62,541 nucleotides of DNA from Elusimicrobiota bacterium (lineage in GTDB: Bacteria; Elusimicrobiota; Elusimicrobia; FEN-1173): assembly GCA_022703335.1 (NCBI GenBank), contig JAKLDV010000001.1, positions 1 through 62,541 on the forward strand, written 5' to 3'. Under the pieces are notes generated by a model that saw only the letters and a program-made list of their open reading frames with translations, did not search any database and had not been told where the DNA came from. This document shows positions 57,081-62,541 of this stretch, piece by piece; positions within the stretch are counted from its first letter, which is position 1; every line of letters begins with the position of its first letter. A program made the translations under genes and the position numbers.

Positions 57081-57108
57081 TTCGCCTCAGTTCGAGGCGC
57101 AAATTAAG

Positions 57109-57181
<73 letters not shown>

Positions 57182-57204: not shown

Positions 57205-57262
57205 GGGCAGTCCCTGACGTGCTGGAAAAAGCATCACCCTTTCCAGCGATTACGGCAGGGGC
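57205..57262. repeat. Copy A of a 58-nt direct repeat containing an imperfect hairpin
   Basis: GGGCAGTCCCTGACGTGCTGGAAAAAGCATCACCCTTTCCAGCGATTACGGCAGGGGC. Inner stem GCTGGAAA (57221-57228) / TTTCCAGC (57240-57247); outer CCCTG/CAGGG. Confidence 0.8.
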
Positions 57263-57361: not shown

Positions 57362-57419
57362 GGGCAGTCCCTGACGTGCTGGAAAAAGCATCACCCTTTC
57401 CAGCGTTTACGGCAGGGGC
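57362..57419. repeat. Copy B of the 58-nt direct repeat (57/58 identical to copy A, offset 157 nt)
   Basis: My manual alignment shows the same sequence as copy A except A->T at the position matching 57249. Confidence 0.8.
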
Positions 57420-59043: not shown

Positions 59044-59658
59044 TTACCACCCGCGTTCTTTTTTGCACTTGTCGAGAAATTTCCATCCAAAGAGGATAGG
59101 GGTTAAGATTCCCGCCAAGAAAGAAACTCCGCCAACATAAATAATCAGTTTTGTATGTTCTTCCGAAATGCCGATGGGTTTAAATCGTTGTGCCGCCGCC
59201 GTTACTCCAAGAATAAAAACAAGAAAAGAAATCCAAAATATTTTTATTATTTCCGGAGGTGTGACCCAGGGAATTGGCATCCAGCGATGGTGCAAAAATG
59301 CACTTTTTCGGAAGGCCTCGACACTCCTGGGCCACGCGAGCAACATGGCATCTTTCATCCCGAGGATAATCTCGAGCTTTGCCAATTCAAAAACGATATA
59401 GCGAAAATTATAACCCAGGGCTAGGGAATAAATTGCACCGAGAAGAAGCGCAAGCAATACGCCAATAGTCCCAGGAACAAAAGCCGAGGCGGCTTCTTTT
59501 TTGTAGCACAACCAAATAAATCCACCAAGGGCTGGTCCGAGAATGGCGAGATATTGAAAAATTTCTTGCTCCCTGTGTCGGAGGGCTTCAAGCATGAGTT
59601 GGTGCATGTTCTCGAGCGCTGTTCGGTCATTCTGGGACGGGGGCGCTTGATTCGGCAT
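59044..59658 (-). CDS. Hypothetical 4-TM membrane protein (low-GC island)
   Basis: 204 aa. Hydrophobic helices ILGPALGGFIWL, GTIGVLLALLLGAIYSL, IFWISFLVFILGVTAA and IIYVGGVSFLAGILTPILF. CAGGAGGA SD. I recognise no family. Confidence 0.5.
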   Translation of the reverse strand: MPNQAPPSQNDRTALENMHQLMLEALRHREQEIFQYLAILGPALGGFIWLCYKKEAASAFVPGTIGVLLALLLGAIYSLALGYNFRYIVFELAKLEIILGMKDAMLLAWPRSVEAFRKSAFLHHRWMPIPWVTPPEIIKIFWISFLVFILGVTAAAQRFKPIGISEEHTKLIIYVGGVSFLAGILTPILFGWKFLDKCKKERGW

Positions 59659-59934: not shown

Positions 59935-61035
59935 TTAAACCTGAATATATTTTTCTTCAATCCCATCGAGATAGCGTCCGTTGGGGAGCCCTAGCATAAT
60001 GGCAATATTTTGCCTTCTTACTGCACGCCGAAATGTTCGCACCTGGCGATCTGTCCAGTTTTCGTGGACAAAATAGTCCGTCGCTTTTTGGCCTTTAGCT
60101 CGGGGTCGATATCCATCCTGGATGCTATTTAATGGTCGAAACCGACAATCTATTACGCGTACCCCCCATCTCCGACATGCATCCAACTTGGCCCGCATTT
60201 CATCATAGCTGAGCCGATGGTTATAGAGCATGAATACAAAAATATTATCGCTGGAAAACCCGGCTGTTCGAAGGGAGAATATTTGTTCTTTAATTTGTGG
60301 CCACATCAGGTATGGCCCATCCCAGGCAATTCGCGGATTTTTAAAGTGAGCCTTTTTTAATAAAACGGCTATTCCAGGATCGCTAGTTAACAATCTTCCA
60401 TCAAGACCGCTTTGGCCTTCACATTCAACAGTGCAGCGATTAGGGAATCTAAATTCCGCGAGTTCGCCAAGAATATTTTTTATATGAGGGTTAGCCAATA
60501 GATTGTTGTCATAAAAAATTAATTTCTTTTTTTTAATCTCGGGCTGAATAGTTTTTTTGAATGACACCAGCGGTTCAACCTTCCAGGTTCCGCAAAAATT
60601 GCATCTGCGAAAACATCCGCGAGAAGCATGAATTATTTGATAATCCACATCCACCATATCGTAAGCAGGGATATAATTTTCTGCCACGCCATTGCGATAT
60701 AAACCAGGTTCAACCGTATCGCAGCCTGTTTGTTTGGCATGTTCGGGCATAAGGGACGCATAAATTCCGCCTAATTCAATTTTGGCTTTGGGGTAAAGAT
60801 TTTTATAGTAACGGACGCTTTCCCAAACATACGCCGACCAATATGTAAAAAGTGAAGTAATTTTTATTTCATCGGGATATCGTAATGCCGGGTAGTTTCC
60901 TCGATGTAGCTCTACGCGATCCCTGAGATGTCGATGATATGCTGCGATTTTTAATAATCCCACAGGCAAAAAATTTGAGTGATTTTTGCTTTTGGAGGGT
61001 ATTGGGAAATCGGGTTCTACGAGGAGTGTTTTCAT
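59935..61035 (-). CDS. Radical SAM enzyme with N-terminal B12-binding-domain-like Rossmann module (low-GC island)
   Basis: 366 aa. The N-terminal FLPVGLLKIAAY... pattern resembles class-B rSAM N-domains. CX3CX2C in ASRGCFRRCNFCG. Its ATG overlaps the TGA of the ParB-HEPN gene (61032-61035). Confidence 0.7.
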   Translation of the reverse strand: MKTLLVEPDFPIPSKSKNHSNFLPVGLLKIAAYHRHLRDRVELHRGNYPALRYPDEIKITSLFTYWSAYVWESVRYYKNLYPKAKIELGGIYASLMPEHAKQTGCDTVEPGLYRNGVAENYIPAYDMVDVDYQIIHASRGCFRRCNFCGTWKVEPLVSFKKTIQPEIKKKKLIFYDNNLLANPHIKNILGELAEFRFPNRCTVECEGQSGLDGRLLTSDPGIAVLLKKAHFKNPRIAWDGPYLMWPQIKEQIFSLRTAGFSSDNIFVFMLYNHRLSYDEMRAKLDACRRWGVRVIDCRFRPLNSIQDGYRPRAKGQKATDYFVHENWTDRQVRTFRRAVRRQNIAIMLGLPNGRYLDGIEEKYIQV

Positions 61036-62426
61036 TTTATGGATTTATTTAAAAAAATGTGATTACAGATTTCTTCGAAAATGGTTAAAACACGATTAAC
61101 TTTTAGATCGATGTTTGTGGGATGGGCACAATCGCATCGCGTGTCATATGCGCTTTTCAGCTGCTTATAATCGGCCATGTGGATAATTTTTTCATACAAC
61201 AGATAATTTAGTAATTGATAATCATTGCCATCTCTTAACCCGTCCTCGTCGGAAACTTTTCGATAATGCGTATAATTATATGGTTTACATTTTTTGTCGG
61301 CCAACTCCTTCATTCGGTCAACCGCCGAATTATATTTCGAAATATTATTTGAAATAAAATCGATTATCCGGCTAATCCCCGTAGCCCAAATCATCACGAC
61401 AGATGCCTTTAGGCATGCTGCCCGCATGCAGCTAAACGCTTCTTTAATATACGCCAATTCTTCGCTTGTCAAACTACTGCGCAGGAAACGTTTTTCGATG
61501 TCTGCCAATTTTGTCTGTTGCTGTGGCGTCGTTTTCAAAATTAACTGATGGGCGGCCGCCGGTTTATTCTTGGTAGATTTGGACTTTGATTTATGGCCCA
61601 ATCCGAACTTTTTCATAAGGGCCTTGTCGGTTTCTAAATATTCATTAAAAGCCGTTTCAATACTTTTATCTTTTGAATTTAAAAAACGTTTTATAATACG
61701 TTTTATTTTTTGATGGTTTTTTTCATCTCGAAAAACATATTTGAAGGTATCCATTAAATAGCGGCTCTTAACGAGTTTGCTATCCAATGCTTTCTGCGCC
61801 ATTATTTTTCTTATTTTATCTTCCGTATATGTAGCGACTAAATCGGGGTATTTCCTTTTCAGGGGGGTTATAAAACTCTTTTCATTTTGAATTAAATAAC
61901 TCATATCTAATTCGTCACGCAGAACCTTGTCGATAATAACATCGTCATATTTACAAAGATTCATTAAATCGTCGATCTCATGGTCTTTGTGTTTAGTAAT
62001 TTCAAGTAGCTTCTTTTTTAAATCGCCGTCTGAAATCTTCGGATTTTCTTGCATAAGATCGGCAATTATGGACTTGATGGATTTTGTTTCAGATGCTTTC
62101 TCCCATTGTTTTCGTAACATGTGAATTTGATAAGCTAAAACCCGGCCATTGGTGTCGCTATCGGCAATAATAGCAGGGGCTTTTGGCAGGCTAATTTTTT
62201 TTGCGGCGCGCAATCGTCTTTCCCCATCGATTAAAACATAGGTGTCTTTTTGTTTTGTTTCCTCCTTGACAACAAGCGGCTCAAGTATGCCGAATTCTTT
62301 TATTGATGACACCAATTTTTCGAATTCAGGATCTTTTAAAATTACTTCCTCGGATTCTCCGCGCGGGTTTTTCTTGTCGAAATGTATATTTTCGACAGGT
62401 AGTTGGGCTGGCGCAAACGAATTCAT
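61032..62426 (-). CDS. ParB/Srx N-terminal domain protein with C-terminal HEPN-like (Rx4H) domain (low-GC island)
   Basis: ATG 62426 (MNSFAPAQLPVENIHFDKKNPR...) is preceded by AAGGAG; the track ORF starts 21 codons earlier. ParB-N motifs NPR and YVLIDGERRLRAAK. The C-terminal helical domain ends ...YDTRCDCAHPTNIDL, fitting the Rx4-6H HEPN motif. Confidence 0.65.
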   Translation of the reverse strand: MNSFAPAQLPVENIHFDKKNPRGESEEVILKDPEFEKLVSSIKEFGILEPLVVKEETKQKDTYVLIDGERRLRAAKKISLPKAPAIIADSDTNGRVLAYQIHMLRKQWEKASETKSIKSIIADLMQENPKISDGDLKKKLLEITKHKDHEIDDLMNLCKYDDVIIDKVLRDELDMSYLIQNEKSFITPLKRKYPDLVATYTEDKIRKIMAQKALDSKLVKSRYLMDTFKYVFRDEKNHQKIKRIIKRFLNSKDKSIETAFNEYLETDKALMKKFGLGHKSKSKSTKNKPAAAHQLILKTTPQQQTKLADIEKRFLRSSLTSEELAYIKEAFSCMRAACLKASVVMIWATGISRIIDFISNNISKYNSAVDRMKELADKKCKPYNYTHYRKVSDEDGLRDGNDYQLLNYLLYEKIIHMADYKQLKSAYDTRCDCAHPTNIDLKVNRVLTIFEEICNHIFLNKSIK

Positions 62427-62541
62427 TTTATGCTCCTTGTGGGATAAGCGGTGGGAACTCTCGGATGTTAATGCCGGTCTGGGCAGCATAGGCTGATTAG
62501 TTGGTTTCTCCTAAATAGTGCCGGAGTTGACATTTGGCACT

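Follow-up and report, generated by a model that had tools for sequence, protein, structure and literature searches.

Near one end of the 62,541-nucleotide stretch of DNA analyzed here (the window; positions 1 to 62,541 of contig JAKLDV010000001.1, from the Elusimicrobiota bacterium assembly GCA_022703335.1) lie two minus-strand genes, one encoding a ParB-like protein fused to a C-terminal domain (CTD) that is probably of HEPN type, the other a radical S-adenosylmethionine (radical SAM) protein. Comparison with related loci shows that the radical SAM protein is the constant core of a large family, and that the ParB-HEPN protein is one of several interchangeable partners. We consider it about an even bet that the pair is a modification-based defence cassette resembling restriction-modification, in which the radical SAM protein marks nucleic acid, probably DNA, and the ParB-HEPN protein serves as the sensing and effector arm. 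An earlier note on this DNA, made from the sequence alone, had proposed a defence or modification module of these two genes. That proposal is supported, and none of the refuting conditions named in the note was borne out, since the genes are conserved neighbours and their homologues lie outside partition loci and biosynthetic clusters, but it needs amending in that the ParB-HEPN protein is only one partner among several and the radical SAM protein is the core.

The fusion gene encodes 464 residues (61032..62426, stop codon included) and the radical SAM gene 366 residues (59935..61035). They share the four nucleotides ATGA at 61032-61035, where the stop codon of the first overlaps the start codon of the second, and the same overlap, as ATGA or TTGA, is found at 9 of 11 ParB-CTD loci. 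The start of the 464-residue fusion is backed by a Shine-Dalgarno sequence, AAGGAG, six nucleotides 5' of the ATG (62433-62438), and by alignment with homologues. A 485-residue reading of the same open reading frame from an upstream ATG (62489) receives no support from the homologues. The ATG of the radical SAM gene has no recognizable Shine-Dalgarno sequence of its own. Both genes are AT-rich, with a G+C fraction of 0.42 and 0.36 across the two compared to about 0.64 over most of the window. On all of these features (both open reading frames, the overlap and the unusual composition) the earlier note had read the DNA correctly. The fusion protein is 100% identical to P0001, a "ParB N-terminal domain-containing protein" of an Elusimicrobiota metagenome-assembled genome (GCA_035454525.1), which carries precomputed annotation for PF02195 and PF27235. 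In all four public contigs with this locus the sequence breaks off at one and the same base, about 115 nucleotides upstream of the fusion gene (62427-62541), a pattern that points to a break in assembly at a repeat or variable junction.

The association of the two genes extends well beyond the window. The radical SAM gene lies directly downstream in 9 of 9 partner look-ups (eight ParB-CTD homologues and one variant, P0115, in which ParB is joined to a restriction endonuclease domain). When one genome per species was scanned with an alignment of the radical SAM protein, 73 loci were recovered from many bacterial and archaeal phyla. Of these, 63 have a gene directly upstream, which was classified by domain hidden Markov models (HMMs), clustering and library scans. 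ParB-type partners account for 22 of the 63: ParB plus a helical middle domain plus the CTD (10 loci), ParB plus the middle domain plus a Pfam PF18742 (DpnII-MboI) domain (5), a split form with a ParB-like gene and a gene of about 505 residues (4), and short ParB-like proteins (3). GHKL-HEPN proteins occupy the position at three loci, with the GHKL ATPase joined to the CTD at two of them and to DUF4145 at the other, and a DGQHR (DndB/DpdB-like) protein with an HEPN_Swt1 domain does so at one. At four loci a long form of the radical SAM gene follows genes for PbeA, PbeC (a DndD-like ABC protein) and a DndE-like "dnd_assoc_4" protein. Proteins of about 330 residues that match only the NCBIfam model NF047698 ("PP_RS20740 family") are the partners at 25 loci, and the remaining 8 are of unclear class. 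The PF18742 domain has a clear PD-(D/E)xK motif (D380...E391-x-K393), and the effector slot swaps between an HEPN-like domain in some partners and a PD-(D/E)xK domain in others. Across bacterial and archaeal phyla the radical SAM homologues keep 57-73% identity, compared to 35-51% for the ParB partners. The gene on the 3' side of the radical SAM gene is not conserved across loci.

Some of the other partners deserve separate mention. The proteins of about 330 residues (at L007, L010 and 23 more loci) contain, as judged by eye, the methyltransferase-like motifs YLGLPG and NLDFCG, and a point mutation in PP_RS20740 of Pseudomonas putida has been reported to give higher furfural tolerance (PMC9630843). 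The split form is a three-gene variant, consisting of a ParB-like protein (about 330 residues, with no effector domain), a protein of about 505 residues without a family match, and the radical SAM protein; it occurs at L033 (5478-9101), L048, L027 and L028, of which L033 is a locus of the complete Ca. Velamenicoccus archaeovorus LiM genome. A more distant relative is encoded on pNL1, a conjugative plasmid of N. aromaticivorans (L086, 118850-125348), where a 537-residue radical SAM protein with 26% identity is flanked by a DGQHR protein and a GHKL ATPase. This operon adjoins a PIN-like/ATP-binding gene pair and a second DGQHR protein (769 residues), and it is a possible experimental model because the host is a cultivated organism.

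The radical SAM family itself is both large and widespread. Clustered at 90% identity, its homologues fall into at least 2,148 protein groups, with best matches 57-73% identical to the window protein, and range over Nitrospirota, Elusimicrobiota, Planctomycetota, bacteria of the candidate phyla radiation, DPANN and Asgard archaea, and viral contigs. The CX3CX2C motif noticed earlier is present as CFRRCNFC (60592-60615), and none of its three cysteines, C141, C145 and C148, varies in any of 45 close and 16 divergent homologues. Within the core family C287 and C297 are likewise fixed. The family also has motifs of its own, namely TSLFTYW, YDNNLL, DCRYRPL and FRRAVRRQNI. Pfam scores of the window protein are below threshold for both expected domains: PF04055 (radical SAM) reaches 13.9 bits against a cutoff of 29.5, over the motif region only, and PF02310 (B12-binding) reaches 13.8 against 32.1. 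However, some homologues carry precomputed PF04055 annotation, and the window protein matches phrog_9298, "radical SAM domain protein", at 1e-31.

Structural comparison is more informative. The AlphaFold model of the radical SAM protein is confident, with a predicted local distance difference test score (pLDDT) of 91.6 and a predicted template modelling score (pTM) of 0.87. Its best Foldseek match is MiaB bound to RNA (7mjw; E = 9.6e-10, query TM-score (TMq) 0.63). MtaB also matches, followed by the cobalamin-dependent methylases CysS and TokK, and corrinoid proteins can be aligned as well. Over MiaB, MtaB, TokK and CysS the values span E = 1e-9 to 8e-6 and TMq 0.52-0.63, at an identity of only about 10-14%. 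It is from the predicted structure, and not from the Pfam scores, that the radical SAM and B12-binding-like assignments draw their support. For the B12-binding-like N-terminal module described in the earlier note, the structure points the same way and the Pfam score falls short; cobalamin binding by this module is putative. The protein is not a MiaB-type methylthiotransferase, because residues 1-120 contain no conserved cysteine, so that the auxiliary cluster ligands are missing, and because the C-terminus is a basic helix with no TRAM domain. NCBIfam methylthiotransferase models match relatives of the protein only at E of about 1e-3.

The same structural matches raise the question of whether the system operates on RNA. 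The radical SAM protein might modify host tRNA or rRNA, and the HEPN domain might cleave RNA that is unmodified (for example, phage-encoded RNA), or host RNA once infection blocks the modification. The closest solved structures are RNA-bound tRNA methylthiotransferases, the best match in a BFVD search, which agrees with the Foldseek results, is a viral tRNA methylthiotransferase, and the extreme conservation of the radical SAM protein across the domains of life would suit a universal RNA substrate. HEPN domains, furthermore, are RNases (PMC3710099). Nevertheless, the partner proteins are of kinds that handle DNA (ParB, DGQHR proteins resembling DndB and DpdB, CxC-ABC proteins with a DndE-like protein, and GHKL ATPases as in the restriction enzymes BbrUII and HgiDII), the alternative effectors are DNases (the PD-(D/E)xK domain and the HKD nuclease of PbeA), and the radical SAM protein lacks a TRAM or other RNA-binding domain as well as the auxiliary-cluster cysteines of methylthiotransferases. 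On this evidence an RNA-level version of restriction-modification seems rather unlikely.

Radical SAM enzymes can also be antiviral effectors, as the prokaryotic viperins demonstrate, and with this precedent one could imagine that the radical SAM protein is itself the weapon. A sensor would activate it to damage or alter the DNA or nucleotides of an invader, by making an antiviral nucleotide as viperin does or by direct radical damage, with the fused nucleases as a second line. In keeping with such a scheme, ParB folds are nucleotide binders, that of the fusion protein has an intact GERR box, and many loci have no nuclease at all. The top structural matches, however, are MiaB and the B12-dependent radical SAM enzymes rather than viperin, and no PADLOC model matches, those for viperin included. 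Effectors usually vary in conflict systems and sensors stay constant, whereas the radical SAM protein is the most conserved part here; the partner-less viral copies described below would also be odd for a host effector. An effector role is therefore judged unlikely. A viperin-like identity was rejected for want of any sequence or structural similarity, and the idea of a nucleotide-centred mechanism drawn from viperin and CTP, flagged as speculation in the earlier note, finds no backing: the enzyme resembles MiaB and B12-dependent radical SAM proteins, and the ParB pocket is without the catalytic glutamate of CTPase ParB proteins.

The N-terminal half of the fusion protein is convincingly ParB-like. 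The ParB/Srx N-terminal domain with its GERRxRA box, both recognized in the earlier note, occupies residues 1-125 (62052..62426) and includes an NPRGE box as well as the GERRLRA box (62205-62225). Pfam ParB_N (PF02195) matches residues 8-91 with 53.1 bits against a cutoff of 26.3, the region also matches ParB, Noc and KorB chains of the PDB, and TIGR00180 is borderline at 58.3 bits against a cutoff of 58.45. In 57 homologues the NPRG box and residues G68, E69, R70, R71 and R73 are invariant, and A74 is conserved in at least 90%. The AlphaFold2 model of the whole protein is confident (pLDDT 90.2), and its first 250 or so residues match M. xanthus ParB, Noc, KorB and Spo0J in Foldseek (E = 5e-8 to 1e-4, target TM-score (TMt) up to 0.62) in alignments of 200-250 columns; the matched ParB, Noc and KorB chains include the DNA-binding domain. 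The middle of the protein had been described as a Lys-rich helical region. It is indeed helical over residues of about 126-277, which form a ParB-like domain, but the Lys-rich part is a disordered linker behind that domain (278-293, where pLDDT is below 50). In the window the middle domain, which corresponds to the ParB central/helix-turn-helix region, maps to 61587..62051 (residues 126-280), and the linker to 61527..61586 (residues about 281-300). A separate HMM for the middle domain finds it in all ParB-type partners, while the linker differs among homologues in both length and sequence.

One departure from CTPase ParB proteins bears on mechanism. In Box III, the fusion protein has IHMLR where M. 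xanthus ParB has ENLQR, the catalytic glutamate being replaced by I/V and the asparagine by an invariant H102. Nucleotide binding by the ParB module is therefore plausible from its sequence, but CTPase-type turnover is doubtful because the Box III glutamate needed for CTP hydrolysis is absent.

A ParB-like fold in a mobile gene pair could also mean that the pair selfishly serves the maintenance or partition of a mobile element, with ParB acting in segregation or silencing and no role in immunity. This explanation would accommodate the genuine ParB-like fold of the N-terminal half, the horizontal acquisition of the cassette, and the location of some homologues on plasmids or beside integrases. 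Against it, there is no adjacent ParA-type ATPase in nine annotated homologous contexts (in the window itself the upstream side lies off the contig), nuclease domains replace the C-terminal dimerization domain of ParB, and GHKL, DGQHR or ABC partners can stand in for ParB altogether. The absence of an adjacent ParA and the replacement of the dimerization domain led us to reject a partition ParB identity for the protein, and a maintenance module is the least probable of the explanations considered.

The C-terminal domain (residues 301-464; 61035..61526) belongs to Pfam PF27235, "AF_1680". Residues 301-458 are all helical in the AlphaFold2 model, mostly with pLDDT above 88, and the domain comprises about 160 residues rather than the roughly 130 proposed in the earlier note, which was right about its all-helical nature and its Rx4H motif. 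That motif (RCDCAH, 61122-61139) contains R430 and H435, which are invariant in the 57 homologues along with E323, E329, C333, W347, D402, P436 and T437; among the cysteines, C338 is invariant like C333 and C433 is nearly so. A profile search with the domain reached 708 representative clusters, and across 58 diverse members of this superfamily only E, W, R and H remain invariant, with a consensus of RNxCAHP and an overall signature of E...W...R-N/C-x-C-A-H-P. The profile matches the solved PDB domain "Dandelion-hepn" (9wx2_A) with E = 8.7e-4. Two of the 58 relatives match DUF4145 (6e-4) and one matches Abi_2 (3e-3), and both DUF4145 and the Abi2/AbiD/AbiF family were classed as HEPN in a 2013 survey (PMC3710099). 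One relative contains an MNT-type nucleotidyltransferase domain. The evidence for the HEPN assignment, first made in the earlier note, is moderate and not decisive; the domain is probably HEPN-like, rather than provenly so, and its role as an RNase is a prediction.

The superfamily has other members that merit description. Most of the 708 clusters are proteins of about 250-285 residues with an uncharacterized N-terminal domain of about 120 residues (P0264-P0390), and a few proteins bear GHKL, leucine-rich repeat, integrase or MNT-type nucleotidyltransferase domains. PDB entries 9wx2 and 9wxf are named "Dandelion-hepn" and "Dandelion" (460 residues) and have the first two CTD helices in common; no paper on these structures was found in the searched literature.

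Many radical SAM enzymes modify peptides or proteins, and the cysteines of the CTD offer potential targets. The radical SAM protein could accordingly be a maturase of its partner, acting for example on a cysteine near RCDCAH, so that the pair would consist of a toxin and its activator or neutralizer and function in addiction or abortive infection without any nucleic acid modification. The invariant C333 and C338 and nearly invariant C433 fit this picture, as do a weak NCBIfam match to the methyl-coenzyme M reductase glutamine C-methyltransferase family and the translational coupling of the genes, which suggests a stoichiometric interaction. The same radical SAM protein, however, pairs with PD-(D/E)xK, PP_RS20740-like, PbeC/DndE-like and DGQHR partners that lack the CTD, and it occurs alone on viral contigs. 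Maturation of the partner is thus very unlikely to be its function.

The surroundings of the cassette are often those of defence or mobile islands. In 37 of 38 loci its GC content is below that of the flanks (median -8 points), and to judge by such sequence features the cassette is horizontally transferred. The neighbours at one locus are a type I/IIG restriction-modification system, DUF87 and AbiEii; at another an MmeI-like enzyme, a DEAD helicase and T5orf172; and at a third a SWI2/SNF2 helicase, Mrr_N-GmrSD and a RES toxin. Mrr_cat and a transposase are found beside a fourth, a caspase-helicase, RadC and an integrase beside a fifth, and at one locus a GajA-like ATPase adjoins the cassette. 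A PADLOC/Pfam scan of 116 neighbouring proteins returned mostly restriction-modification, PbeA, MADS, OLD/TOPRIM and helicase families. A biosynthetic cluster was rejected as an explanation since the neighbours vary between loci.

Viruses also carry the radical SAM gene. A scan of viral contigs with the single radical SAM protein gave no loci, but the same scan with the alignment gave 11 IMG/VR contigs (L088-L098), none of which contains any of the cellular partner families. Marinitoga camini virus 1 (L087, 37383-38465) likewise carries the gene without these partners. The viral copies are 30-55% identical and are located amid small co-directional genes. By analogy, these partner-less copies may be likened to the orphan methyltransferases of phages.

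These results can be assembled into a model for the favoured defence function. The pair would be a horizontally acquired two-gene conflict cassette, directed against phages or plasmids, from a large family with an invariant radical SAM core. To go by gene order and overlap, the genes are co-transcribed and translationally coupled, with a conserved linkage, and their products would presumably act as a complex. The ParB-like N-terminal and helical domains are predicted to bind DNA and nucleotide and so bring the system to DNA; because the GERR box is intact and the hydrolytic glutamate is absent, the ParB module would work as a switch or clamp and not as a fast CTPase. The radical SAM protein, with its [4Fe-4S]/SAM core and Rossmann/B12-like domain, would place a covalent "self" mark on host nucleic acid, most probably DNA. 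Nucleic acid that is unmarked or invading would then license the HEPN-type domain to cut RNA, leading to an abortive or growth-arrest response, and in sister systems the PD-(D/E)xK DNase in the same slot would cut DNA directly. The model makes the cassette a functional analogue of Dnd, Pbe and Dpd, with a radical SAM enzyme as the modifier.

Several arguments favour defence with the radical SAM protein as the marking enzyme. The conserved linkage of the genes, the low GC of the cassette and its defence-type neighbours all count for it. Beyond these, first, it is the constant component, and its partners are DNA-handling NTPases akin to those of Dnd, Pbe and Dpd, with swappable nucleases. Second, at L065, L067 and L049 it fills the modification-enzyme slot of CxC-ABC/DndE cores. 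Third, the resemblance of the partner-less viral copies to orphan methyltransferases would be expected if the system is restriction-modification-like.

Several results weigh against this model. The best structural matches of the radical SAM protein act on tRNA (MiaB and MtaB) or small molecules (TokK and CysS), not on DNA, and HEPN RNases would be no less at home in a system centred on RNA than in one centred on DNA. The substrate of the enzyme and the DNA mark are putative and rest on context and structure. The profile matches behind the HEPN assignment are weak: the Pfam scan gives no direct HEPN match for the window protein, the Dandelion-hepn alignment involves the first two helices only, the top 50 Foldseek matches of the full-length fusion model are all ParB-like, and hhalign comparison of the CTD profile with single DUF4145 (L022) and Swt1-like (L058) domains is not significant (E = 0.3-0.8). 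The restriction arm is not universal, because about 40% of the loci pair the radical SAM protein with the protein of about 330 residues, which has no recognizable nuclease. Finally, L003 and L080 have no obvious defence neighbours, and the upstream side of the cassette is absent from the window, whose contig stops about 115 nucleotides before the fusion gene.

A bolder version of the defence model can be proposed, which we hold to be possible but doubtful. In this version the enzyme would act directly on DNA and supply the modification arm of an immune system, the first of the radical SAM enzymes to do so. It would make a new radical-generated mark (such as C-methylation or another C-H functionalization), to be read by interchangeable ParB, DndB, GHKL or ABC sensors whose nucleases are of HEPN type or have the restriction endonuclease fold, and the copies in phages would be a counter-defence, acquired without the partners. 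To our knowledge, radical SAM enzymes have so far been implicated in prokaryotic immunity only through the viperins. If the defence model is true, a large and phylogenetically broad family of immune cassettes is built on a radical SAM enzyme. The cassette could then reveal a new nucleic acid modification and account for the repeated occurrence of ParB/DndB-type NTPase modules next to modification enzymes. It would also be a natural example of a conserved modifier served by swappable sensor-effector proteins, and it provides testable hypotheses for Pfam PF27235 (AF_1680) and NCBIfam NF047698 (PP_RS20740).

Other features of the window lie close to the cassette. Directly 3' of the radical SAM gene is a minus-strand open reading frame of 204 residues (59044-59658; GC 0.48 in the 1-kb interval), whose product appears by eye to be hydrophobic and membrane-like. 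It has no Pfam, NCBIfam or PADLOC match and only a non-significant one in PHROGs (E = 0.25). The gene is not a conserved neighbour of the cassette at other loci, so it may be an independent cargo gene of this island. A tRNA-Ala(CGC) gene is located at 57108-57181, 2.7 kb downstream of the cassette. No tRNA-derived direct repeat bordering the low-GC segment was found in the window, the other end of the island being off the contig. Just 5' of the tRNA gene are two 58-nucleotide direct repeats, 98% identical (57205-57262 and 57362-57419), each of which forms a long minus-strand hairpin; the 241-nucleotide region folds with z = -6.3 and has no Rfam match.

The earlier note did not recognize the cassette as any named system, and database comparison agrees. 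The radical SAM protein matches no family in PADLOC-DB v2.0 at E <= 1, including the viperin, Dnd, Dpd, Pbe, BREX and PDC models, and the long radical SAM protein of L065 also matches none. The fusion protein gives only weak N-terminal matches there (MTase_II at 2e-6 and PD-Lambda-5_A at 1e-5). No published account of the ParB/radical SAM pair was found in the searched literature, which did not cover Krishnan et al. 2020, reportedly the first description of CxC-ABC systems.

The closest parallels are with systems that modify DNA. Dnd and PbeABCD similarly combine a DNA-handling part (a ParB-superfamily protein such as DndB/DGQHR, or an ABC ATPase), an Fe-S enzyme and nucleases that include HEPN, and in the sister loci L065, L067 and L049 the radical SAM gene directly follows the genes for PbeA, PbeC and the DndE-like protein. 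The modification enzymes with which CxC-ABC/DndE (PbeABCD) cores combine are known to vary between phosphorothioation genes and cytosine methylases (PMC10853773). The window, however, contains no DndA/C/D/E or PbeA-D genes by open reading frame, Pfam and PADLOC scans, and the cassette enzyme is a true radical SAM protein, unlike DndC, which is a PP-loop/4Fe-4S protein. The Dpd system (DpdA with the DGQHR ATPase DpdB) also couples a ParB-superfamily NTPase to a DNA-modifying enzyme, as the cassette putatively does. ATPase activity of DpdB is needed for base exchange by DpdA, and the sister partner at L058 and the pNL1 proteins match the DpdB model weakly. Dpd is nonetheless different: the cassette has no DpdA/TGT-like gene, and the radical SAM enzyme of Dpd, QueE, has another architecture and makes only a precursor.

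At the level of single proteins, the radical SAM protein shares an N-terminal Rossmann-like domain and a radical SAM barrel with MiaB/MtaB and with TokK/CysS. It lacks the three N-terminal auxiliary-cluster cysteines of the methylthiotransferases and TRAM, and its Pfam B12-binding score is below threshold. The prokaryotic viperins (pVips) are similar in being radical SAM enzymes with an antiviral context, a context that is putative for the cassette, but viperins are not known to be paired with ParB or HEPN. The prophage pairs of TcmP (three-Cys-motif partner, methyltransferase-like) with Gp37/Gp68 likewise join a Cys-motif enzyme of Fe-S/SAM type to a small Rossmann-like partner, although this is an analogy only, and NCBIfam does not place the proteins of about 330 residues in TcmP. 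The fusion partners, on the other hand, have been seen before: the 2013 HEPN survey described ParB-HEPN proteins (such as Saro_3948) and GHKL(paraMORC)-HEPN fusions in restriction-modification neighbourhoods (PMC3710099). It mentions no radical SAM partner, and the CTD of the window protein falls in a separate Pfam family, PF27235. ParB-HEPN and GHKL-HEPN fusions were therefore known already, the link to a radical SAM enzyme appears to be new, and there is a real chance that the chemistry of this enzyme is new as well.

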